64,000 nucleotides of DNA, from NCBI GenBank assembly GCA_964187785.1, contig OZ076409.1, positions 78,060,001 to 78,124,000 on the forward strand, in the 5' to 3' direction. The notes beneath the pieces are model-generated. The model worked only from the letters and a program-made list of their open reading frames with translations, had not been told where the DNA came from and did not search any database. The stretch is from Amphiscolops sp. MND2022. Its lineage: Eukaryota. Below, piece after piece: positions 6,586-64,000 of this stretch. A program made the position numbers and the translations under genes. How positions within the stretch are numbered: position 1 is the stretch's first letter; each line of letters begins with the position of its first letter.

Positions 6586-8131
6586 CAGGGATGTTAAAAT
6601 TATTGTGTGGTACGGTCAGGGATGTTAAAATGATAATTTATTTTTAAATAATTGCAATAATATTAAATTTATGAGACTCCAATAATTTATTGTTTTGCAA
6701 ATCAGTATTTAACTAATTGTTTCTAGAAAACACAAGAATTTAATTTTGCGACCCTTTACTAAACCCCCAGAGATGTTACAATTATGAGGCGTATAATCCC
6801 GCACAATTCCGCATAATCTGACGCAATTTTCGTCGCGCACAAATTGCCGCATAATTGCGTTATATTGCCAGGTGTTGCCGCATATTTCTGAGAAATATAA
6901 AACAAAATATAAGCTATTATTCAAAAATGCATGATTCTGATAATTTTTATAAGGAATTAATCATGTCCAGCCCTGTTAAAGGTTACAATCGGTCGTTTCT
7001 TTTACTGGAGAAAACAGAGAAACGAAAAAGAGGTCATTCTTCATCTGTGAATGCCCAAACGCGCAAAAATGTTCCAAAACTCAGACTTTCTTCCCGAAAA
7101 AGCTTATTATTTTGCAGATTGAGTTGAAATTCAGTTTTGACGAACTTATTTTTCCCCGCATAATTCCTCAGATTAGCGCATATTTCACAGTTTTGTACCA
7201 TTCAAATAAAATTCCGCATCACATAATTCTGAGCAAATCCCCGCACTAAAGTAACATCTCACTAAAATGCAGAAGCGAAGCCATGCCTCAATGTTGTTAC
7301 TTGGCGAAGGGAGCGAAGCGACCGAGCCATACAACAAATATGCTAACCTCTTCAAATAATAACTTGAAAATAATCGCTGTTATGGAATTCTTTCGACGCT
7401 TTGAGTAGCCCTAATTTTTTTGACGTTTTGAATATTCAACGATTTGAATAGTCACCGGTACGGCCAATACAAGCGACGCCATGACATGCAACGCGCGAAC
7501 CAATTCACATTGCAATTTTACGACGAGTTAAAGGTGTCTAAGTAAAGACAAAGAACAAATATTTTGTCTCCACAATAATTTTCAATTGTTTAAACACTAT
7601 TTAGATACAATATTTAACATCCCTGGGTACAGTAATTGCAATTAAATTGTGTAAATTATAATTGGCCTCTTTTGAAAATTTGAAAAGTACACAATGTTCG
7701 AATGGAACATTCGCTTCGGTTTAATCGCTGATTGTCAAACTCTCAACTTTATAACAGTCTGCAAGGCTCTTACCCATTACCATTAAAAGTATCATGTTTC
7801 TACGGTCTAACAGAGAACTATGGACAGCCACAAATTTCCAAAATAGGAAAATACGCTTGTGTTTTTTTATGGTTACACTGTCTCTATATTTGTTCTAATA
7901 ATATATTTTCTATATGAAAGGGGACCGTGCGCATCGAAACCAAAAAGGTAATGGTCTACGTATGTATGGCCCAGGTTACAGAGGAGGCTTGTCAAAAAGG
8001 CGAGGAATGTGTCGATACGCTGCAAGCTGCAGAGCGTATATTTGTTCTAATAAGTGTATTTATTTCAAAAATTGCAATATGAAGTGGTATTCATTACAAT
8101 TTAATTGTCCTAGTATTTTTTAATATCCCTG
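6586..8131. mobile_element. hAT-type MITE (outer) with a same-family MITE nested inside
   Basis: TIR CAGGGATGTTAAAA (6586) / TTTTAATATCCCTG (ends 8131); flanks GTTGAAAT / CTTGATAT (degenerate 8-bp TSD). Confidence 0.6.
6617..7625. mobile_element. hAT-type MITE (inner)
   Basis: TIR CAGGGATGTTAAA / TTTAACATCCCTG; TSD GGTACGGT / GGTACAGT; contains a further probable element 6768-7260 (GAGATGTTAC / GTAACATCTC). Confidence 0.75.
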
Positions 8132-8531
8132 CTTGATATTAGGTTTTTGTTCATTTATTAAAGATTCGAAAATTGGTATATTCCTTATATTTGATGCAGC
8201 CAATCATTTTCATTTAATGCTTGATCGAAGAAAGACTCGGTATCTGAATTTTTGAAAGGTTGCGTCTGTGAAATTATAAAGGTATTAGCTTATGAATATG
8301 GCATCGTATGTCTGGTATATTCAAGTTTATAGGGGCTTGACTATTGCAACAAAGTTCATGGAACCAATGTAGTCATCAGCTTGGAACTTCAGCTTCAAAT
8401 GTATAAACTTATCTGTGATAATTTAACCTCAGTTGAACATTTTCAAGTGACGGAAGTCATCTTCACTTTATCTTGACTTGATAAATTGACTTCCTATTTG
8501 GATTTGAATCATACCCATACTCAAGTTTACA

Positions 8532-8605
8532 ATGTTTCTTGCCCCAAACGAGAATTTGTTTACAATTGAACTTGAGGATGCGGATAGAAAGCCTCGTAAA
8601 CAGAT
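8532..8605 (+). CDS. Rab exon 1 (putative)
   Basis: ATG 8532; phase-2 donor AT|GTACGA matches phase-2 acceptor AAACAG|T at 9058/9059; intron ends are complementary like the other two Rab introns. Confidence 0.55.
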
Positions 8606-11600
8606 GTACGAATTAGTTCACACAGCAAAAGTTCTACTTAAAGCATGGTTTTGACATGACTCATTTCAAATTAACTATTCCATAAATCACCAAATTGAAG
8701 TATATTGTTTTACAAAGGTAAGAGTGGAATTTTTCGGCATTGTGAAACCCCGTGATTTGAAAGATTCTGAATAAATTTTGATTTTGGACATTCCTTAATT
8801 TTTCGCTAATTTGAATCGCTGAAAATTTCCTGCGCGACCTCTATTTCGCTGAATCTTTTACTAGTGGGAACTCTAACTCAAAGTTAGACAAAAAGTGTTA
8901 GCTTAAGTTATGTTATTTGCTTTGCCTATATTTTGTTATATATGAGCTCTGCGTTCTTGAAAATGTTCTTATTGAAGTTCATAAATCAATTTTGGAATTT
9001 TTGATAGTTTTTTCACTTCTGGTCTTTATTGTTGTTTGATGTGTGATTACTGAAACAGTGACGGTAAAGCCCCTCTTAAAATAATCACGTTGGGCAATTC
9101 TGGTGTGGGCAAAAGCACTCTTTTAGAACGTTTCTCTACTGGTCAGTTTCGCCAACGTTTCTGCTCAACGAGATTGCCCGAACTGGTGAAACTGAAAGCC
9201 AAACTTGATCAAGAAATGAGCATCTATGTTGATATTTGGGACACTGCGGGTCAAGAAAAGTTCAACTCTCTCACTAATTCCTATTACAGGAACAGCTTTT
9301 CTGCCCCTTATTTTTGAAAAATTTTGGAATTTTTAACTCAATATTCCATATGAAATGTTTTTCTAGTTCTGGTATGCAACGAGAAGTTAATTTCATGTGT
9401 AGTAAGATTTTCGACTATGAATTAGACCAAAATAATTTTTGTTTGGCTCAAAAGATAGTCATAACTTTTTTTCATGACTTTTTTTTAAAGTATTACTTCA
9501 CATCAAAATACAATGACTTCTGTCTATAAACGGATTCGTATGTTGGAATAATAGTGTTTAGACAGTTTGAGTTTAATCCATTTTCAGAAATTTTGAAATG
9601 AAATCTTTTAACAAATGCATGTGGGGCTGGGGGACAGAAAAGAACCACAGGAACTGCCATGCTGTCGTTTTCGTCTTCAGTATATGTTCCGAAAGATCCT
9701 TTCTAGATCTGGCTAATTGGTTTGCACGTGCCAAACAACATCACATTAACCTCAAATCTCAGGAAATGATTTAGTTAACGGGTTTGAAAAAACGCTAGTA
9801 TTTCAAAAGTTATAAACTCGTGCGATATTGTGTTTGCGAAGATTTTGGTCAATCCCCGTTATGGTCTATCGTATACTACTAACATGTTTCTCCTCGTTCT
9901 TATACTTCTGCCTGATCTGGCTGAAGTTGAAGTTTCGAGAAAATTAGCTCAAGATATTTTACTTCGAGAAGTTCATGAGAAGAATGATTCACGTATTAAA
10001 AATTTCAAGAAATATTCGAAGCCTCAGAAATATCACTTCTGAGACTTCGTCTCGGTATCTTGGCATTTGTGGAATTGGTTTGTTTTTGTACGCAAGATCT
10101 ATATTTGCTTCAGACACAACCCCTCGGTTGAAGCAACTAGTTCGCAATTCTTGAGACATGTAGTTGATTTTCCATGCAGTAAATCAGCGCTTTTTGTATG
10201 AAACGTGCCCAAGGTGTCCGCTTCAGAATTTTTTGAAAGGTCCCCCGTTTCGATTTTTGGCCCTGATATTTATCAGCTCCTTAGCATTTTTAAAAGGTTC
10301 GGTAATTTTCAAGCCTTGAGCAGGGCGCTGCCTTGGGTAATTCCCGGCTACTGTTTTTTTTAAATCTTTAAATAGTGCTTTGCGCCACTTGTACCTGTTT
10401 TGATACAGTCGTTCCCAGCGCAATATAGAACTGATGCAATCAAATAAAAACTATTGCATTTCAAATATCAAACCGCTTTTCATGTACAAATTTGTTGCAT
10501 TCCTAATATAAAAGTTGCACGTCAAATATCAATTTGCCATTCAAATAAAAAATTGTACCTTTTGAAATTTGAAAATTGCGCTCTAAATATTGGGCCGACC
10601 AATTACAGATTTGTTGCATTTCAATACAAAACTATATCAAACCAACATTAAATTATTAGAAGGAACTTGATAATTACAAAAAGGTTTATGCATACATGTA
10701 TATAAATTCTTTTAATATAAATATACGTACAATTCTTTTAGTTTAGCGGCAACTCTTCACCGGCGAGAACTATCATCACTTTTGTTTTCATCCGTTCATA
10801 AATGTTGCTAATTGATTCCTCCTTGATTTCAATTGCCGCTTCATGTATAGCTCTATCTAGTTCAAGCGGAGATGTTGGATTTTTAGCTCTAACTCGGCCT
10901 TTCCAACATGCATGTTCTATTGGATTAAGAGCTGGCGAATAACGGGGAGGAAATCTCAATTGCGCTCCAAACTCGTTTGCAATCTCTCTAGCACCCGCAT
11001 TGTGATGAAATGCTACGTTATCCGCGATAAAAAAGAATGATACTAAACCTTCCCTTCGTGCATATTGGCACAGTCGACGCAGGAAATCATTGTAAAGTTC
11101 AGAATTACAAGTTCCATTCAGAACATCATAGACATAAATGCTCTCACGTGTAACAGCAGAAAGAATTGTAAAATTTTTCCGACGCAATGTTGGTGTTCGA
11201 GTAATTGCTGGTTTGGCTCGGCGACTGCGTCCGTATAGTCTGCGCATGTTAACGTTTAATCCCGTTTAATCCACAAAAAACAAAAGATTTCCATCGAGAT
11301 GCGGCCTTGTAGATGGGCAATAGGTTATTCGTTCTCTTGATAATTCTTCCATAGGTGGTCCATACACCCGATGCACTCGTTTAAACCCGAGCTCGAGATA
11401 GTGTAGAGGTTGTAAATGTACGACCAGGAAATTGATGATTCCCAAGTAAACAAAGTTCTTTAAGCGATCGGGTGCAATCCTCGTGCAATGCACCGTGAAA
11501 GAATTGCAGATGCTCTTCATTAATTGAGGAGCGACAATTACTCCCACCACGTGGCAAAATTGTCTGGCGACCTCTTCTTATAATTGCATACACAGTGGAA

Positions 11601-12848
11601 TACTTCAAATTTACCATTTGGCATATTTCTATTACTGAACGACCTTTAATGTGGTTCATTATCAAAGCACCCACATCGTTACCAACTTTAGCATAACTGC
11701 TGCGCCTCGATGAGCGCAACTCCTCAACGGAGATTTCAGAATTTTCCCTTTGTCCTTCGTCCATATGAGTATATTCATCGGAAAACTCGTTTGAATAACC
11801 ATCCGAATTGTCGAGGTAACTGTTTTGTTGAAATTCTTGTTATATCCGATCCAAACTTGGAAGTTCTAGCTCTATCAAGAGACGCGCATTTGGAATATCC
11901 ATTAGGTTAATAGTTGTTCACACTAGTTTAACAGTTTAACTGCAAAGCAAATTGTCAAAACCAAAACGGATGTTTCTGAAAAGTTTACATATTTGGCTGC
12001 AACTGTTTGCTTCGTATTGATAATGTTCATATTTGAAATGCAACAATAACATTCGGTGTGCAACTATGTTATATTTGAATGGCAAATTGATATTTGAAGT
12101 GCAACTTTTATAATAGGAATGCAACAAATTTTTACATGAAAAACGGTTTGATATTTGAAATGCAATGGTTCATATTTGATTGTGTCAATTCTACATTGCG
12201 CTGGGAACGACTGTATTGCATCAAAAAATATTTTTATTGCATTGTAAAATAATCTGTTACTTCAGTTGAGCGCTCACCCTTGCGGCTAATTTTACTAATT
12301 CGATCCCAAGCTCCATATCATTAGTTGGATCCCGGATGTCTCGGTTTTGGTTTCTGCAGTTTCACAGTTTTTAATGGAACTCTACATAGACGTGTTTCAA
12401 AGAAATTTCTTCAGTTACTTCACTGGCATGAACTATTGTTTGCCCCAAGAACTAAAATCACAAATGCAAGTGTTTGCTCCGCTACATTGTCAAATACTGG
12501 TCTGAAAGTTCTCAGTATGGTAATCATTTCCTTCAGGGTGGCCACGTAGTGTCTATTCTTCTGGGCAACAAAGTAGATTTATGTCCTTTTGAACGACAGG
12601 TAGATCAGAGAGATGCTTTGACTTTGGCTAGAAACTTCGGAATGGAGTACTTTGAAACTTCTGCTCTCACAAAAGAGCGAGTTACCGATGCTTTCAACTT
12701 CCTCATTTATCGAGCTTGGATCGAAAAGCTGATGATGGACGAGCTGAAAGGGGACTCTTCCTCGGAATTATCTTCGGGTTTCAGTTTGACGGATGATGGC
12801 AAATTCCTTTCTAAATTGAGACGAAATTCTGCTAATTGCTGCTTGTGA
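8532..12848 (+). CDS. Rab-family small GTPase (divergent), 4 exons: 8532-8605, 9059-9289, 9651-9762, 12537-12848; 242 aa
   Basis: Spliced product has G1 GNSGVGKS, G3 WDTAGQE, SLTNSYYRNCHAVVFVF, G4 GNKVD, G5 ETSAL and a C-terminal CCL prenylation motif. Exon 1 is less certain; introns 2 and 3 need GA donors. Confidence 0.85.
9059..9289 (+). CDS. Rab exon 2 (G1-G3 motifs)
   Basis: KAPLKIITLGNSGVGKST...DIWDTAGQEKFNSLTNSYYR. Confidence 0.9.
9651..9762 (+). CDS. Rab exon 3 (beta4-alpha3); absent from the ORF track
   Basis: (R)NCHAVVFVFSICSERSFLDLANWFARAKQHHINLKSQ fills the missing Rab segment. Confidence 0.85.
10406..12213 (-). mobile_element. IS630/Tc1/mariner-superfamily DNA transposon with long TIRs, in Rab intron 3
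   Basis: TA|CAGTCGTTCCCAGCGCAAT ... ATTGCGCTGGGAACGACTG|TA; imperfect TIRs of ~240 bp; internal transposase remnants. Confidence 0.92.
10738..11764 (-). pseudogene. DD34E transposase, frameshifted with a premature stop
   Basis: HTH-like N-terminus (ORF 11381-11764), FFVD*TGLN, DNVAFH...SPALNPIE with 34 residues between the second D and E; split over frames. Confidence 0.85.
12537..12848 (+). CDS. Rab exon 4 (G4, G5, CCL tail)
   Basis: CTTCAG|GGT; GGHVVSILLGNKVDL...ETSAL...NCCL, stop TGA. Confidence 0.9.
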   Translation, partial: GGHVVSILLGNKVDLCPFERQVDQRDALTLARNFGMEYFETSALTKERVTDAFNFLIYRAWIEKLMMDELKGDSSSELSSGFSLTDDGKFLSKLRRNSANCCL

Positions 12849-14082
12849 AATTAAAGCTTGATCATTGAGTGGAAGTTCGCGTATTTAAGCGGAAAGAGTT
12901 GTCATTCTTTTGGCGTTTCTTTTTATTCTCGGCTTTCTTTTGCAGAAGCATTCCATATCTTATAAATTGGGTAAATCAGCAAGTAAAGGGGTATTTCATT
13001 AACATGGAACCCCCAAAACTGGAGAATCATCCAAAATACGTTTCACAACCAACTCTTTGAATAATACCCGGAACGCTTATCATCTAAATTGAAGGCAATC
13101 TTTCACAATCAAGGTACATGTCAAAAACCAAAAGCTCTTTTTTGAATACCGAAGTTAATTCTTCGCAATGATCATGCATCCTTTCGAGTTTTTACGATTT
13201 GGATTATTAAATTTTTATAACAGCTTTTCAACCAATATACACGTTAAAAAGTTTCGTGCTTTTTTTTAGGTGGCGCGTTACAGTCGCAAGTTTTTTTGTA
13301 GAATAACAGTTTCCACTCTGAAAGCGCCATTTTTTGCCCAATTCTAGCCTAAGTTCTGCAGGGTATTAAAAGAAGCCAAGTTTTTACATGATCTATGAAA
13401 CAAGAGGCCAAAGTCTCCCTTGCAGTTTTTCAGCAGTTACCTTTTGATTTTTTTTCATTCCACCAAAGGGCCTTTCCTTTGCTTTTGTGATATTGTGAGT
13501 CGAGAAAAAACTTTGGATTTTTTTGTGAAAACAGCTTTCTAGTATTATTGACTAGCGCTTTTTGAGCCTTGAACGAGGCGCGACGTTAGATGTTTGTCTT
13601 ATTTAACCACACACTGGTACATGAGGAATGAGGTTTGTGATTTTCAACTAGGAAGTAATATCAGATGGTAAGTTGTATTCCGTGTCTCGTTGGTGTTTGG
13701 GGCTATTGGTTGAAATTATTGGGCGAAAACTACCACTGACTAATCTTGATTAGTTTTCCTACACACATTTAGATTGGATCTCTCAACATAGGTCGCTTTC
13801 AACAGTGATCTCCAGTTTTTTCCTTCGGAATAGGTCGTAACTGCTTGCTTTCATTTTTCAAGCCGCCTGTTTCAACGCTTTCTAACTCGATTGCAATTTT
13901 TCATTAAGTTTAAACTCATTGAAAATAAATTAACCCTATTTAAATTTCGTTTGCCAGCTTGTAGACTTCCTAATATTAGTTTCGATTTCAGATAGGTAGT
14001 GTACGCGCTGTAAATAGTTTAAATATGTGAAGCTCTCCTTTATTCTGCAATCGGTTATCAGTGAGGAAAAGAGTGATCGGTC

Positions 14083-26200: not shown

Positions 26201-29200
26201 AGCAGAAATAATGCTGTGCCCCGCAGGGGCTCATTTTCTTAATCCAATCCTTTAAATTCATGCGTGAAATAGAGAATGAAAGAAATCACCATATAAAATG
26301 CTAGCTTTGTTTACATGCAGTCCAAATTATTTCCTACAAAAAGGGTTCAACTCTTCTTACACTATTGTAGATCTGATGATTATTACATGTTGAACTCTTT
26401 ATTCAATAAGCAATATACACCAAAGATTCATCTGACAGTGAGGTTAAAAAAGATTCACAATTAGGTTTCAGTAAGATAACAGCACCTGTAGAATAAGGTT
26501 GCCGGTGTTTGAGATAGGTCAATCGGATCTCACCTTCGACGACCAATAAAATTTGAGGTTTCCCGTAGCTCAAAATTGTGTCTGTGGCGTTTTGAGGTAG
26601 TCGGATTGAGCAGACTGCAAATTCGTTATCGTTGGGAGGCAAATACATCTTTTTGTGTTTACCCATAATCTTTGGTTCAATTTTGAAATCAGTCTCAGAT
26701 GAAAACTTGTATCTGGTACTTTCAATTAAAGGTTGCAAGTCTATGAACTTAAACGTTAGACCTGCTCTGATTACATTGTCGCTCAGAGCCATGCATTCAA
26801 TACAGTTTCCACTGATGTAAGCATGTGGTGTCAATGCCTCCAGGTATATTGCCTCCCCAGGTTGAAGTTTGATGTAATTCAGGAGATAAATCAGAAGACA
26901 TCCTCTATCGTAGGCTAGATGATTGTGCAGATGAATCATCAACGGTTTCAATGGGGTTCTGTCATTATCAAGTAAGCTTCTAACTAATGAAGTAACATCG
27001 TTTTGTCTCATTGTCACGATATTCACAAAAGCAAGCTGTAGATCGTCTTCGTTTTCCAATTTTGTCACACCTAATAGCTTCTCAACGCTGTCATTGATTT
27101 CATTGATTGTTTTGATGAATCCATTGATTTCTTCCTTCGGACGGAAACCACACAGAGCTGTGAAGGGTGTGCACGCAATTGCCATTTCTGGTTTGTGCTT
27201 CGGTGTTTTGTAAACTTCTGGATTTTTTGCATGCAGTAGACGAGCCCATGTTTTGTCGGGGTGGATTTGCAGAGACAGCGGATGATGTATTGACAGAACT
27301 TTGAATAGAAAATCAAGGTCTGTTTCCCCGTCAAATTCATCACGCCGTTTTGACATGAAGTCAGTCAGCGTCTCGTCAGTACTGAAATTTTAAAAAGGCT
27401 ACGAAATTCTAGTTTACCAATTTGATGTTTTATTCTCTAACTTTCATTTGGCTCCGCTATGTGATGAAACAGTTGCGTGTAGAGCAAAATTTTAATTCAT
27501 TCTGATGGCCAAGTTCATTTCCGGGTGTTTGAAATTGCCGATTTTGATTCGAAAAACGATCGATTGAAAGTTTGCCGATGGACATCTTTTGTTCTCCCCT
27601 TGAAAATTTCTTGCAAAAATACGCCGCTGATTCGAAAATACCAGCAGAGATATTGGAAATCCTAAAACTTTTCGGATTTAACTGTGAGGATGAAAAGTTA
27701 CCCAAGAATGCTTGAAGGTTTGTTGGGGTGACTGCCCATCCATAGTTCCCCATATGTTTCCTCGTTGTCAATGAAGTCTATGTGTCCTCCTTTGTAGGCC
27801 AACTGCGCAACTAAACTCTCTGCGCCTTTCTTGCCCCAATGGTAATTTTGAATTCCACATTTTAACTGCTGCATCTTATAAATGTTCTAATAAATAACTT
27901 GAAAAGTCAACTGGTTATCAAAAGGTTTTGCGTTACAAAGATAACGCAATTTTGCGCTTAATTTCTATCTAGTCTATACTTTCTTGTGTGCGATTTGTCC
28001 TTGTATGCGAGTGTGGTGTACCTCTTTTCTAAAGCCACGAAAGGTTGGTAAAGTCGAGGATTAGTCACTAAATGTCATAAAGTTTAAAGTTTCAACTTGG
28101 TTGCTGTCAGCAAAAACAATCTGATTTGAAACTTGAAAATTTGCCTCTGAATTGATAAATTAATGAGTAAGCCATTACGTTTTTTATATTTACTATCATT
28201 GAACTATCTTATTTTACAATTGCTGAAGCTGGCCACGTTTCGAATTTTGCGTAAGTATCTAATTGCTGCTCTACCATGCGCAAATGACCTTGTGAAAAAT
28301 AATTGGACTCGTCGGTCGCGTTTTTGTGTCTGGCCGGTACATTTCTGACCGGTACTTGGTGACCGGCCAAATCAGTTCTGTTGACGCAGCGCCCTGTAGG
28401 TGATCAAATACTGTAATTTAATTATATGCCTATTTCACACAGTTTTCTGCTGCAACTGTCAAGAAACATTGCATGATCAGATCGGGTCGCACTCAAAAAT
28501 TCGTAACAAACCAGGTCTTTATCACGCATTGACATTTTATAGGTCAATGCGTGATAAATACCTGGCTTGGTTTGTTACGAATGTTTGAGTGCTCGTCGAC
28601 GCTTTTTCAAGCAAAACGTATTTTCCAATGGCCAGAAAGCTTTAAACTTTTTTTGGGAGAATAGGAAAGTAAAATTTCCTTTGAATCAGTCCTTCGACAA
28701 TTTAATTTCAAATTCCATAAATACGGTAACTTCATTATCAAGTGGTTTATTCATGGGTGTACTGAAAAGTTGAAGATCAAAAGTGGGGAAAACTAAGTGT
28801 ACTTCCAAAAAGTGGAATTTATCCAATTTTATACGCCAGTGCTTCTGTGAAACTGATTTTCTGGCAAAAACAAAACCGATTTTTCTGTTGATATGATTTA
28901 GCTATTGATTGTTGGCTTCTTTGGTGAAATGAGTATTATAAGTTGTCATTAGAATTGACGAACTGAAATGATTGGCAAATGCTTGTATTCAAGTTCTCTT
29001 GATCCTAGTTTTCGTGCACAGTCGTTATTGCAGCAATCAAGCCTAAAAAGTTGGCGACCGCCAGACTACAACAGAGGAAATTCTTTTCCATAAAGAAAGT
29101 GTATTCTCAGCAAGCCGGGAACGGCATAAGCCGGCAAAACCCAAAAATTGGACCGAACTGGCGCGCCCAGGGGCACTGGCGCGCTAAAAGGGGGACCCTT

Positions 29201-47200: not shown

Positions 47201-50200
47201 CGTTACCAAAAAAGTTAGAAATTGCAAATTTTAGTAAATTTTAATTGAAATTTGAGTTTTTTCGAAAATTGAGTAACTAAGACTAATTTTTTTGGATTTT
47301 TTTTTCATTGGGAAACTTCATATAATCTCCCGAACCTACTGAATTGTTTTGATCGAGAATTTTTTTTCGAATCAGAAAAATAAACTATATTTCGTGTCTA
47401 TGAGCACTGAAGTACATGTATTAAGATAGGCTATAAGAATTGTATTTAGAAAATTGATGATTTTTATTTGAAATCGAAAAAGTTTTCCGATCAAATGATA
47501 TCAGCATCCTCAGGAGATTTGGGGGCAAATGATTGACTGAAAATTTTTCAAAAATATATTTTCAACTTTGTGAAAATCCAGAAAAAGTGCAAATTTGATT
47601 AAATTTTGTCAAAATTTTCAATTTCTAACTTTTGTAATTTTTGTCGCAGAAATTTCAAACAAACATTTTTGTAAACTAGATAAAATTCTAAGAAACTTTC
47701 CTAGCTGACACTTTTTTGTATTTGTGATAGTTTTCAAGAAATTTGGATTTGAAATTTGCAATTTTAAGCATTGGAGTTGCGATATTTTAGAACGCTACTG
47801 TAGTGATTGTTGGTCACAATTGCGCGATACTTTATTTCTGGAATTGTAATAACTCATGATTTGTTTTCAGGAACGGGGGGCAACTTGGAGATATGGGGTC
47901 AGGCATGACCAACGCCAATCAAGTGCCAATAAGCATGGTGCAACAGCAGCCACTACCACCCCCGCAGCAGCGCAATACTCCACCGGTAGAGACCACCACG
48001 CAGATAGACCTGGCCCAGCTGCTGGAGCACATCCAGTGTTCCAAGTGGCTGCCCAAATTCCAGGAACAGGATGTCGACATCAACGTCTTCTACACCATGA
48101 CCGACAACGACTTGAAGGAAATTGGCATCAAGTTAGCAAAGCTCTGATTTGTTGACTCTACTCATTCAAACTAAAACCCATTCATGTGATAAATTTAGTT
48201 GATCAGGGAGAAACCAGACGGACCAGCTAGTGGAAGGCACTATAGGCGGAAAACAAGTCGGGATCGGCATTAAATTGACGCCCGCTTAAGGCTCAATAAG
48301 CGCAAAGTACTGTGTTGAGTAACTGTTTCTGAAGAACATCCTAGCGTCAAAAATTCCGAGTAGGGCCCATCGGGATAAAAATTTATTAATTAAAAGCACC
48401 AAAAAACCAAAGCTAGGACCCTATTGAGGAATGATGTTTTTTCGAAAAACCGTAAAGTGTCAAAAAACCTAAACGGGACACTTTGGTGTCGTAAAGCTTC
48501 GCAGTTGGGATAGAAAGGCCAGGCAAAAATTATTCGAAAAGAAAGCAAGTGTCTGGAATCGAATCCCGACGATAAAGCAGTCAGTTGAAAATTCCCACCT
48601 CTGAGCGTGAAAGTTTGGATTTAGTTAGTCAGTGCCAAACGAGAGAATTTCTTATTTTGAAAAAAGCGCGCGAAGTTGGGTCAAAATTATCGTGATACGG
48701 AAGCATGAAATTTGCAGGTCCTTCAGTGTGAATTTCTGCGGATCCCAGTTCGCACTCGCTTCAGAAGTAATGAGTGCGAAAAGTCATTGTCTTCATCCAA
48801 GTGACAATTGTCAATGTTCGATAGTTGTGAAATAAAGTTGGGCTGCGATTCTGTTGCAATTTTGAAAAAATGAAGATTGTGCCTAAAGTTCTGCCTGTAA
48901 TTTAAATATGTATTTCTGTAATTATTGTAATGTCGTATATTATAATGTCGTTATAAATAATATTGTAATTATTGTAATGTAATATTAATAACTGTCGTTA
49001 TTAATTTGTAATTTCGGGAGATTTGTCTAGAAATATTGAATTGTCTGTTACTATTTTCGAGTCACAGCAGTGGTATCCCAAAGTATCCAAATGGATTCTT
49101 GGAATTCTTAACGATACTTGCTATTTGTACTGACCAGCTGATTGTTAAGTTGATGTTTCCATATTTTGACTTTTCTAGTCTTTTGGGTCCTCGGAGGAAG
49201 ATGACGACTGCAATAGCGAGACATCATCAGAACATGGCCGTGAATTTGTCCACTTTGGAGCAAACATATGCCAACAAACTGCAGAATGATATCGACGATA
49301 TTAACAAACAGCTTGTACAGGCTAGTGTTTTTGATGTGAAACTATCACTAGCATTGATCATTTTAGATACATCGCAAGTCAGTTCAAAAACTTTCTAGCC
49401 TTCGCTAATCATCAAGAGACCTTCAATGGTCCTGACTTTTATGCCAACTGTGTTCGAAAATTATAGTTGAGCATACTTTCTCGTATTTCTTTCGCGTGTT
49501 TCTCCTAACACCAGACATGCTTCGTATATGGGTTACCAGCTGTCATCGTTTTATCGTCCGATCGAATATATGGCACCTCCGAATATGAAGCGTCGTTTTC
49601 TTGGGCCTTGTGGAAGAATGAGCTGAGTCAACCATCAACAAGACGAGAACATCTTGAGACACCGCCCGCTCCAAGCTCAAAAAGCGCAGTCTCAAATATG
49701 CTTATAAATTTCAGAATAGCAATTTTTCGTAGTGGCGAGGGAAACGTAAAAAAATCCATATTGATGTTTGGGTTTGCGACACAAAAGGTCTTTTTGGCTC
49801 GCGAAACATGTTTATAATATTTCTGCATAAGCCTAAATGTTATAAAGCCGTAAATGTGATCTTTTTCCAGTCTTATTATCGACCCGTTTTCTTCGCCAAA
49901 TCTAGTAGCAGTGAGACAACGCTACTAGAAGTCTTAAGTTATTTCATTTAATTTTCGTGTCAGCTTTTTATTGCGATGAAGCGAACGAGTGTTATTTCGA
50001 GTGTCAAATACGAATGCGAAACGTCGGATACGCTTAGTAGGTGTATTTGCTTTATTCCGAAATGAATCTAAAGCGGTGTAAACTTATACAGTGAATAATT
50101 GTTCACTATATAATGAATGAATTCATAGCAGTGTTATTTCAGATACGTTGTATTAAGATTTAGATTAAGTTAATTGTTATCGTAACCTAAATCAGAAATT

Positions 50201-60098: not shown

Positions 60099-62744
60099 AG
60101 GAACCATACGCGAAGGTACTCTGTGTACTCTTCACAAATTGGTTGCATGGTTTTCTGTGAGAGTTCCCAAAAGACACCAGGTTCACCACACAAGGCATCT
60201 GTTGCCCCTAAGTTAAAAATAAAACAAAGTGCAAAGTATCAAGCGGATCCATGCCTACTTCATTTAATTCTAAAGATAAATTTTTTAAAATGTTGACATT
60301 CCACATAGTTTTGTTTTGATGTTATGTTCTGAATTACATAATATCAGGCTTCCGTTGAGCGGGCATTTGACTGTGGATGTCTGCTCTGTTATTTGATGAT
60401 TGTACTTAATTTGTATTAGCGTGTGTTTCTTTTCATTGAATAGCAGATGAATTCACTTCAATACCCGAAGGGTAGTAGTAGTACGTGGCGTTATAGGTGG
60501 GGGGGGGGGGGGGTTGAGTGAGTAACCAAATATGGAAAACAAATCTTTCTCAAACGTTACGTAATAATTGCGGCACGAACACGACGTATCCAAACATGAA
60601 AATTTTCATCGGGAGCCGAATAAAAACTGAAAACAAAATACAGGCCCGATAATTTTTTCCATTGTTTTTCTATGCAATAAAGGAAAATTCCTTACCTTCG
60701 CGTGCTGGGCAGTAATAAAAAAGGAAGGAGTGGTTTTTTAGGAATGGAAATGGAACGCAGAGGGAGGAAAAGAAATGGAATCAATAAAACGTCTAATAAT
60801 CTAGCACCTTTGAAATGAATGTGCTCTTAGATTATATTACCTTACTTTTGAAGCGTGATTGCTGTGGAACAAGTTTCCCTAATGTTGCATTCATTCGCGT
60901 AATGGAAGAAGTCATTAGTAATTCAAATAATATTTATGGAAGTAATCTCACTTTCTTTTTACACCGAATTTTCACGTTCTCTAAAATGAAAAAAACTTTC
61001 TAAAATGTTAGAAAAAACAAAAATTTCGGGAACAAATGTTGAATTTTTAGAAGAAAAGCAAGTAACTGCTTTCTAATTTGTTTCAGAATTGCGAAGGCAA
61101 CATTTTTTGTTAATTATAATCCAAAAAACACACTGTCAATTAACAGTGTCGGTCTTTTCTTTGATTCATCACTTGGAAACTCAAAGTTGGCGGGTGCCGA
61201 ATTTCACAGGAACAAAGGTGGACCCTGGAACACTTTGAAAATAGGTTCAAAAGATAGCCGAGCCTGTAATCGAGGTCTTATGAGCCCAAAAACTGAAAAT
61301 AGTTTTTTATCCGAGTTTCCAAATGATTAGAAACGGAAATTGTGCCTGGGTTAAAATCTTTGATGTTTCCCAGATAAAAGTGAAACTGGTAAAACCAGAG
61401 GAGGTGCTTGGAGGCCTGAAAAAAGGGTTGAGCCTACCAAGCTCAAAAAATTCATTCTTTGCTCAAAACCTAAAACCAACAAGTTTGAATATGGAACAAC
61501 AATATACAATCTTTTATAACTTCAAAATGCAGGCGTGGCTGGAACTAGATGCTATTGATCACTTCGCCTGGGGCCTTGTCACCGACGCCTTGTTGTTGAT
61601 GGCCGGGGAAGAGGTAGGTTGTTCAATCTTCGTCTTCTAGAGCTTTTTGCCGTTGAAATTTCATCTCAAAAGTTAACGTTCACAAACGTCTGGCTGCAGG
61701 GAATTCAATCGTACATCGATGGGGCTAGAGTGGGGCCTGTGCTGATCTGTTCGCCTTCTGGGCGATCAGGAAGCACGAGAGCCGGCTCCTGCTCGCATAT
61801 CTGGAGGCCTGGAGGAAAGGTACCCTTGATGTGGGTATCCACCAGGCCCTCCAAAAACGTGTACTTATAACGTGACCTCCAAAAATATTATAAACTGTTT
61901 TAAATCAAGAATAATTTTAATTTAAAAATCTGCTTGTAATTTTTGTTTTTGTCTGTGCTTGCACTAGTGATTGGTCTGGCGAGACGTAATCAAATTCTTC
62001 CTGAGTTGAACCGAAGGATCGATAAAGTTTTGCAGAGACAGCTCGAAAAGTGCAAATTTTTCAACGTGCACAGAATGCTTAACGGTGGCGTCGACATTAC
62101 AGATCAATTTCACTACACTGAGCCGTTTTGGAACGAACTTTGCACGATCTTCTTCAATTGGCGTCTTCAAAAACAACTAATAGCTGAGTTGTAGTTTTCA
62201 TTTAACACAAATATTTTTCAAGACTCACTTTCTGAATATGAACCTAGTTTTGTATCTAATCAAATACGTTTTTGTTTAACGTTATAACTGTAAAGTCAAC
62301 AACCCCTTATCATGGAAAAGTAAGAAAAATTCTGAAAAGAGGTTTCATTGTCATACTCTGGTTAGAAGTTGAATTTAAACATGAATGCATGGTCTTGACT
62401 CACGGAAAAACTTTGTTTCAGCCACTTTTTGTTCAATTGTAAAACTCGAAATTTCACTTGTCAATGACTATCATGAACACGAATAGTCATTCGGAAATTA
62501 TTTCCCAAAAGGGAAAAAATCCTCCAATGAGGCAAATTTTTTGAAACGCCTTATTTGATGCAAATTTAGGTTCAGGACGAAAAATTAGACGAATTTGATG
62601 TGCCCATGTCTAGGGTTTACTCGATATTTTGTCATGAAAAACTTTTTTGCATTTTGTTTTCACATTGACTTAATGTAAGAAGACTGAGGAGAATAGCTGT
62701 TGGTTGTGGTGGTGGTTTTGGTTGTGGTGGTGGTTTTGGTTGTG

Positions 62745-63048
<304 letters not shown>

Positions 63049-63054
63049 GGTAAA

Positions 63055-63292
63055 CAACCATGGGTACTGATTCAAAATTGTTGCTTTCAGGAAATCTCCG
63101 AAATAGTGAAAACCATTGGATAAGCGAATGAATGTTATCCAATGTCCGTCAATGTCTAAAGGTGTGTACAATTTGAAAAGTGTCTCTTGGCATAGAGTAA
63201 TTGTAAGTATTGGTGTCGAAGCAACCCAAGTATCGATGTTTTAGTGCGGGAACTTTTGGAAAAAAAACTTGAAGCAAGTCTGCCCTATCCAT
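63055..63292 (-). pseudogene. Adenain-type cysteine protease remnant of a Polinton/adintovirus-like element
   Basis: ATG at 63292 overlaps the end of the capsid ORF; MDRADLLQV...LKHRYLGCF...DTFQIV, then a frameshift to GHWITF...HYFGDFL (catalytic His/Asp region); abuts the TAG array. Confidence 0.6.
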
Positions 63293-64000
63293 GTTTCAAC
63301 ACTTTTCTTGTTCGATCATTTTGAACTGTTGTAAATCCTTCTTCCAGGACAAGCAGTTCTAAAGGCGTGCTAGTGTTGGTCGAAAGTTTGAGCTCGACCC
63401 GTATTGCTGCTTCCACAAGTTCGGGATATTGAATTTTTTGATTGCACTGTTGTGTGGAGGTAAGGTCGAAAACTAAATAATAGTGATTTTCATAATTGTC
63501 CAACTTGATTAGGGAACCGTCTTCATCAAAAAGGTGGGTTTGAATAGTCTTAAAGTAAAGTTGAGTGTTGGAACTTGTGCTACATTCCACCACTGGTACA
63601 CCATTCCGTAATACTCGCACTTTCTTTAAATTGTGTTTGTGGAATGCAAGCAGAGTGTCTGTCCAACGTCCAGTAAATTGATTGTTGGGACACGTGGCCA
63701 GTACCATGCGTCTAATTGGTTCTGCATTGAAAATATCATCACGAAGAAAACGACTTTAGTCCTTTGGAATCACAAATGTCTTGATGCTGCGTACTTTAAA
63801 ATAGTTGTATATAGCAAGCTATTTGATCAGAGATTGTTGTAAATTGACGTGATAGTTTTCTGCAACAGTGTAGTAACGAACAAAATTTGACACTGGTTCA
63901 ATTTTTGGGATGAAGGCAGGGTTGAGGCAGGGTGAGAGCACTTTGCAGCAAGTATTCGGGCTTGTTTCTCGTCAGTCGAATTCGCATGGAACAATTGTGA
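63285..64000 (-). pseudogene. Polinton/adintovirus-type major capsid protein, C-terminal part, with in-frame stops; runs off the window edge
   Basis: MRIRLTRNKPEY...KTFVIPKD*SRFLRDDIFNAEPIRRMVLA...NQFTG...RNGVPVV...HYYLVFDLTSTQ...YPELV...IRVEL; recognised from recalled similarity to invertebrate Polinton MCPs. Confidence 0.75.

Follow-up and report, generated by a model that had tools for sequence, protein, structure and literature searches.

Predicted GA-AG introns with paired ends in a Rab-like gene of Amphiscolops, and their possible origin from transposons

A Rab-like gene with two predicted GA-AG introns

We analyzed a 64,000-nt stretch of the genome of the acoel Amphiscolops sp. MND2022 (assembly GCA_964187785.1, contig OZ076409.1, positions 78,060,001 to 78,124,000; hereafter the window), which lies on a 104-Mb contig within a 1.07-Gb assembly. 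For two genes of this genome, named homologues reach an identity of only 33-48%. The window contains a Rab-like gene whose introns 2 and 3 are both best read as GA-AG. In the longer of the two, intron 3, a perfect 11-bp stem connects the donor with the region of the acceptor across most of the intron. This stem is real and beyond chance, and the predicted junctions of other genes place it in a class of paired intron ends that is enriched at non-GT donors. The gene is laid out as follows.

9059..9289 (+): Rab-like coding exon with the G1-G3 boxes (Pfam Ras, E 7e-18; spliced alignment)
9290..9650 (+): intron 2, best read as GA-AG, 361 nt (homology; ends pair at -20.6 kcal/mol)
9651..9762 (+): Rab-like coding exon with beta4 and alpha3 (spliced alignment)
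9763..12536 (+): intron 3, best read as GA-AG, phase 0, 2,774 nt (homology and splice-signal score)
12537..12848 (+): last Rab-like coding exon with G4, G5, C-terminal CCL and the TGA stop (Pfam Ras, E 4e-10)

All junctions reported here are predictions from homology and splice signals. Joined in this way, the three exons give a frame of 217 residues that contains every G box, falls in the Ras domain and ends in CCL; its nearest relatives are 34-38% identical. A protein search with the last exon found no spliced product. We considered an identical protein match to exon 2 (P0121) as a possible transcript and rejected it: it reads through intron 2 with a TGA as W, and is thus the product of a gene caller. 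No start exon was found upstream of 9059, either by donor score or by end pairing, and a TGA just upstream of the first listed exon breaks a possible N-terminus. An Rfam search of 8500-13500 returned no match.

The gene looks constrained and alive, because its 651 coding nt carry no stop or frameshift while the transposon that forms intron 2 (described below) is ~30% diverged and has 8-9 gaps per 200 nt. In simulations of neutral decay, the frame survived in 0-9% of cases at 12% divergence, and the test is decisive only for that older date. In both introns an AG ends the preceding exon, the intron starts with GA and has A at +3, and it ends in AG.

The stem of intron 3 and the choice of junction

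The two arms of the stem are given here with intron positions counted forward from the donor and backward from the acceptor.

9761..9771 (+): 5′ arm, comprising the last two exon bases and intron positions +1 to +9, spanning the GA donor at 9763
12522..12532 (+): 3′ arm, positions -15 to -5, over the pyrimidine tract and a putative branch-point A

The first arm is the exact reverse complement of the second, which ends 4 nt before the acceptor AG at 12535-12536; the helix covers -2 to +9 and -15 to -5. These features, as well as a TAG at 9772-9774, had been described in a first-pass annotation of the locus, and the sequence bears them out. The arms are terminal inverted repeats of the kind that introners carry, perfect over 11 bp. 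They form the sole inverted 11-mer pair in 9700-12600 once the terminal-repeat pairs of a Tc1-like element, one pair inside that element and three self-overlapping palindromes are set aside. Pairing of at least 11 bp was reached in none of 4,160 cross pairings of the ends of 65 control introns and in none of 3,000 shuffles. The stem is A/T-rich and less extreme in duplex energy, with 3.2% of cross pairs equally stable; its energy rank (p = 0.023) falls narrowly beyond the cut of 0.02 that defines paired introns below. When the whole of intron 3 was folded, 10 of the 11 stem pairs formed at a probability of 0.9-1.0 and the last at 0.49. We conclude that the pairing is not a product of chance, since end pairing recurs at non-GT donors elsewhere in this genome. 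U12-type introns are marked by an RTATCCTT donor and a TCCTTAAC branch, and neither motif is present, on reading by eye, at the ends of the two introns.

To place the junctions we wrote a spliced aligner that has no pairing term and uses a profile from 66 Rab-like proteins. For intron 2, homology favors the GA join, at 201.5 bits against 192.1 bits for the next join; the margin is 4.4 bits when splice signals are included, and the end-pairing p is 0.010. For intron 3, homology alone leaves the matter undecided: joining GA 9763 to 12536 scores 201.5 bits, against 200.6 bits for GC 9730/12515, 197.6 bits for GC 9724/12515 and 193.7 bits for GT 9774/12508. The first-pass annotation had held that the in-frame TAG forces a donor at or before this point and that the in-phase GT or GC alternatives would delete beta4 or helix alpha3. 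Neither argument is supported. Other in-frame joins exist: the GT at 9774, inside the TAG itself, can join 12508, and the GC donors at 9730 and 9724 give loops of normal length when joined to an acceptor which that annotation had overlooked.

12514..12515 (+): competing acceptor AG, also in frame, located 21 nt upstream and weaker (-0.4 vs 4.0 bits)

What separates these joins is a splice-signal score trained on 219 GT introns of this genome, with a penalty of 6 bits on GA. Blind to pairing as it is, this score, added to homology, puts GA 9763 with AG 12536 ahead by 9.1 bits. The rival GC sites lack both end pairing and the exon AG, which precedes 27 of 31 non-GT donors. Intron 3 is therefore best read, on homology and splice signals, as a GA-AG intron at 9763..12536.

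The interior of intron 3 holds a nested transposon and, upstream of it at 10278-10366, a piece of a common repeat.

10406..12213 (-): nested Tc1-like DD34E element, 1,808 bp, with a TA duplication and a broken transposase

The element shows the features of Tc1/mariner transposons, namely a TA target duplication, long CAG...CTG repeats and a DD34E transposase, here a broken DDE_3 frame on the minus strand in which the D-34-E spacing was counted on the translation. It had been credited with terminal inverted repeats (TIRs) of ~240 bp. The long repeats are real, with 154 bp aligned at 91%, and the length is generous: the left arm reaches ~235 nt only if an extra segment of 30 nt, 77% identical and lying past an indel, is counted. 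That these repeats fold back and usefully shorten the loop, as had also been suggested, finds no support, as removing the element leaves the probabilities of the stem pairs unchanged. We accordingly rejected fold-back as a splicing helper, and the element is a later passenger in intron 3.

Paired ends at non-GT donors and a transposon origin

We compared the introns of the window with those of Ras-family, kinesin, myosin and kinase loci of the same genome, ranking the duplex formed by each intron's own ends against all cross pairings and calling an intron paired at p<=0.02. A filter on the homology margin alone kept false non-GT calls that lay beside real GT donors, and was therefore replaced by the score with splice signals. 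The main set had 398 called junctions, of which 364 were kept (333 GT, 24 GC, 4 GA and 3 GG, including the two of the window); a later set had 35 called and 28 kept. The counts include a few non-GT calls that are probably false. An earlier Rab set, in which 77 introns were called and 12 doubtful ones dropped by eye, left 62 GT and 3 GC donors among the 65 kept, and the idea that GA donors are common here was abandoned; several of the dropped introns later proved paired. Outside the window, 2 GA and 3 GG donors were found among 390 kept introns, one of the GA calls being probably false.

Paired ends were strongly enriched at non-GT donors. Outside the window, 13 of 29 non-GT introns in the main set were paired, compared with eight of 333 GT introns, a share equal to the null rate (Fisher 4e-11). 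The pattern had first been seen in Ras, kinesin and myosin loci; in the kinase and further Ras loci, which were fetched afterwards, six of 14 non-GT and seven of 110 GT introns were paired (p 7.5e-4). Over all loci outside the window, the counts are 15 of 33 GC, GA or GG donors and 11 of 357 GT introns. The stem of intron 3 is, on these predicted junctions, a member of this class.

Several properties set the class apart. An exon AG precedes the donor in all 16 paired non-GT introns, compared with 151 of 324 unpaired GT introns, and acceptors are weaker in paired non-GT introns (median -1.5 vs 4.5 bits). Most GC donors that resemble the consensus, with AG at +4/+5, are unpaired. In a post hoc split, non-GT donors of the form AG|G-x-A without AG at +4/+5 were paired in 13 of 16 cases and other non-GT donors in one of 13, while GT donors of the same form were paired in just four of 45. 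With the register set on +3 to +15 only, the exon AG also pairs in six of 18 cases against nine of 158 (p 0.0014). A second GA intron, in a myosin gene (loci L098 and L099), likewise has its exon AG paired with CT, and end pairing is also seen in two GG introns (L193, L197). The sequence of the stem differs from intron to intron. Donor strength did not predict pairing within either the GT set or the non-GT set.

The first-pass annotation had missed that intron 2 is also GA-AG and, in addition, a recognizable miniature inverted-repeat transposable element (MITE), which suggests that such stems derive from transposons. Its parts are these.

9286..9293: left copy of an 8-bp target duplication, containing the CAG|GA donor
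9294..9646: MITE of 353 bp, from a family of ~400 bp with GG(C/T)TCTTTTCTG terminal repeats and 8-bp duplications
9647..9654: right-hand copy of the duplicated target, containing the acceptor AG

The right end of the intron matches the terminal repeat of the family exactly over 15 nt, whereas the left repeat is eroded. Among the 11 other genomic places where the MITE interior is found, the longer matches are 68-75% identical. Repeat family, terminal repeats and target duplication are all present, as expected in sequence for an introner-derived intron. Both splice sites lie within the 8-bp copies, and the predicted join restores the frame. Judged by its sequence, intron 2 is a MITE whose target duplication supplies both the donor and the acceptor.

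We also scanned the collected loci for inverted ends with duplications and found free elements flanked by 8-bp duplications. In one group, with two copies in the window, the elements start with CAG and end with CTG, the pattern of hAT transposons. Donors that start CAG|GNATG resemble these free elements and account for 10 of 35 non-GT introns but only three of 333 GT introns. Seven of the 10 have a matching right repeat 11-21 nt ahead of the acceptor, and in these the expected duplication is identical at 26 of 56 positions against a background of 27% (p 0.0014). In five of six GC cases, the base of the right repeat opposite the donor's C is not its complement, as if the donor had changed, and improved, after insertion. 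Among these hAT-like cases, 72 of 84 scored repeat positions agree, against 26 of 56 in the duplications; under equal decay, the probability of seven repeat matches in 10 is ~1e-4, and at 70% identity it is 0.26. Three paired introns of locus L078 have interiors without relatives in a genome search, and their ends are near perfect.

Further hAT-like sequences were noted in passing. The two in the window are MITEs at 616-1389 and 6617-7625, with CAG...CTG ends and 8-bp duplications identical at 7/8 positions; an end of the second matches the GC donor of an intron in L213 at 12/13 bases. In L088 (2691-3392), the left end of an intact 702-bp element with a 7/8 duplication supplies the best-scoring GT donor of a myosin intron, which we left out of the counts because its margin was only 2.9 bits. 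The first intron of a Ras gene (L218, GC donor) has a hAT-like repeat from +3, with the donor within the presumed duplication. In many Ras, kinesin and kinase paralogues, the match extends across the full domain uninterrupted by an intron.

The remainder of the window contains a long exon of a mannose-6-phosphate isomerase gene (26406-27389, -), an exon with a SAM domain (47860-48144, +) and a long trinucleotide repeat at ~62700-63070. An open frame at 63288-63755 (-) has no Pfam match and may resemble a Polinton-type capsid fragment.

A possible bridge between splice sites, its alternatives and known systems

Putting these observations together, we propose that intron 3 is a GA-AG intron derived from an old TIR transposon, whose end repeats were kept as a bridge from the donor to the branch site and acceptor, a reading to which we give about an even chance. 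The transposon would have inserted into an exon, with splice sites supplied by the element's end or by the duplicated target. Its interior would then have decayed, later gaining the Tc1-like element, while the ends were conserved. In the transcript, the helix would form across the loop, covering the U1 site and the pyrimidine tract. Since a helix over both the donor and the 3′ region cannot persist into an active spliceosome, the ordinary spliceosome would have to open it, probably as U2AF, SF1 and U2 load on the 3′ arm. The donor would be released beside the branch site, and the exon AG, through U5 loop I, rather than U1 pairing would fix the cut. The proposed role of the helix draws on established spliceosome chemistry.

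The splicing RNAs look ordinary. ACAGAGA is intact in the 12 U6 copies examined out of 19, and all 20 U1 copies examined keep the AC that pairs with GU. No U1 variant matching GA was present among the 20 of 23 matches examined, with 42 of 17,560 candidates scored. The U1 5′ ends (L011-L030) comprise seven canonical forms, six with T at position 11, three with ATACTAACCTG, two with a replaced 5′ end and two single variants. The ATACTAACCTG form complements GTTAGT, which is among the commonest donors here (8/65). The U6 genes (L200-L207) are arranged as inverted pairs, with 60 bp between two of them.

A broader claim, which we advance tentatively and with less than even confidence, is that several thousand GC, GA and GG introns, a number extrapolated from the ~4% of sampled introns, come from hAT and other transposons with 8-bp duplications, and that the end repeat is a required guide helix replacing U1 pairing.

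A number of observations weigh against these proposals. No element family was found for the ends of intron 3, in searches that are lower bounds and in which a missing match of the ends in the genome does not show rarity; 1.6 Mb of loci held two partial look-alikes of its termini, neither with matching flanks. Its duplication in the hAT register matches at 1/8 positions, and the only exact fit is of 2 bp, which chance easily gives. The origin of intron 3 is thus argued by analogy, and we file it as working like an introner and not as a member of an introner family. For the class as a whole, in-register duplication tests are weak (p 0.06 upstream, 0.67 downstream). A position shared with paralogues is found for paired introns in five of 16 cases, compared with 124 of 324 for GT introns, and paired introns show no clustering in genes (p 0.19); the position of intron 2 itself is that of a GT intron in three paralogues. 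Over half of the non-GT donors (18 of 33) are unpaired, and the new Ras set taken alone gives two of four against three of 24, which is not significant (p 0.14). The span of pairing (~-3 to +14) equals the repeat length of free elements (~11-14 bp), and its narrow limits therefore give no evidence of selection. The duplication, being located in the pyrimidine tract, may erode faster than the repeats. A helix that covers the donor is expected to block U1. The GA join makes the alpha3-beta5 stretch 23 residues long, against 14-21 in 81 Ras-family proteins. Finally, neutral survival of the reading frame at the divergence of the Tc1-like element (4.5%) is still 14-38%.

Some of these points are shared by a rival account that we judge unlikely, though deserving of a real share of belief. 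It keeps both the transposon origin and the GA-AG junction, and takes the stem as a neutral relic whose repeat has yet to decay, the donor working through the exon AG and the A at +3 alone. It is consistent with the match between pairing span and free repeat length, with the many unpaired non-GT donors and with a faster erosion of the duplication. GA donors of Eurytemora, with AG before and A after, are likewise spliced, and the available text on them mentions no structure (PMC5714493). Against it stand the better preservation of the repeats than of the duplications, the near-perfect ends of the L078 introns, whose interiors have no relatives, and the post hoc finding that AG|GTA donors of the same class rarely pair while their non-GT counterparts mostly do.

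We consider it improbable that intron 3 is an older intron that once had a GT donor, which then drifted, and whose helix arose by selected point changes in the absence of any transposon. The missing family and duplication, the sharing of positions with paralogues as commonly as for GT introns, and the variation of stem sequences would all suit such a history. It leaves aside, however, the clear MITE in intron 2 and the many members of the class that have hAT-like ends and are mismatched where the donor bases lie.

Somewhat less probable still is the use of another junction (GC 9724 or 9730 to 12515, or GT 9774 to 12508), which would place the arms away from the intron ends and make the match between them a coincidence. 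The homology scores are nearly equal, the alpha3-beta5 stretch has 19 and 17 residues with the GC joins, within the range of the 81 relatives, and GA donors are rare. Yet the GA join leads once the splice signals of this genome are applied, the GC sites have neither the exon AG nor pairing, and it is unlikely that chance would place an 11-bp match precisely at the best-scoring junction, in the register of the class. Least credible of all is a dead gene, an intron-poor Rab copy with unspliced transposons whose stem is only an insertion's end repeat: both donors and the acceptor of intron 2 score poorly, the start exon is missing with a TGA in the possible N-terminus, and no close paralogue or orthologue is found, but the G boxes and CCL are intact over 651 nt beside a heavily decayed MITE, and conserved genes for myosin, kinesin and kinases show this architecture as well.

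If the proposed bridge is real, these introns would show the late fate of introner-made introns, in which the end repeat persists as a splicing aid linked to donor type after the element has become unrecognizable, and they would offer a direct test of how an unmodified spliceosome handles non-GT donors. Should the helix be neutral, they would still document introns made by transposons in a group of animals on which no such report was found. Gene annotation would be affected too: unless end pairing is taken into account, GC, GA and GG junctions of this genome will be missed or misplaced. Our literature search returned no report of such introns in acoels, with the reservation that unread supplements or subscription papers may hold one. 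The main text and 12 of the 14 supplements of one paper contain no acoel term (PMC12130899), the supplement of another names Hofstenia in its genome list only (PMC9860276), and the accessible part of a third has nothing on splice-site classes (PMC9911081).

The comparisons that follow draw on the accessible portions of the cited papers. Long-range RNA helices that join distant splice sites, as in DSCAM and ATE1, are reported to be enriched at weak sites (PMC9198270). They resemble the stem of intron 3 in spanning kilobases, whereas here the donor itself lies within the helix, whose presence is linked to the donor dinucleotide. In the nonconventional and intermediate introns of euglenids, a helix joins the intron ends, CAG/CTG pairs are common and a MITE origin has been proposed (PMC4770533), all of which recalls our introns. 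The euglenid helix is fixed at +4 to +6 and -8 to -6, the borders are non-canonical, and the mechanism of removal is described as unknown. By contrast, positions +4 to +6 of intron 3 pair with -10 to -12, G at +1 and the AG end are retained, and the helices described here cover the donor, with a 3′ arm at a variable distance from the acceptor.

Among animals, Fritillaria borealis has 95% non-canonical introns, mostly AG/AC and AG/AT, together with a duplicated U2AF (PMC13326754, PMC11282704). Its introns are also transposon-derived, with terminal repeats, and are removed there by a U2-type spliceosome; unlike in Fritillaria, 357 of 390 sampled introns here are GT-AG. GA and GG donors are known from the copepod Eurytemora affinis (PMC5714493) and from Oikopleura dioica (PMC7072748), and the GA donors share with ours the exon AG, the A at +3 and an AG acceptor. 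GA and GG make up ~12% of introns in the copepod sample against ~1% here, where GC dominates. The accessible copepod text mentions no end pairing, whereas the introns here pair their ends, and it proposes a U1 variant, of which none was seen in the 20 U1 copies here.

The closest parallel is with introners, introns derived from MITE or TIR transposons in Micromonas, Aureococcus, Florenciella and dinoflagellates (Gozashti 2022, 10.1101/2022.06.06.494994; PMC11282704). As in introners, terminal repeats and a target duplication lie at the junction, non-GT donors are tolerated, and splice sites come from the element's terminus or from the target, intron 2 taking both from the target. Introners represent a recent, high-copy burst, whereas the introns described here appear old, belong to several families with unrelated interiors and make up ~4% of those sampled. 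Here, too, in contrast to introners, the pairing of the ends seems to outlast the duplication, and no element family was found for intron 3.

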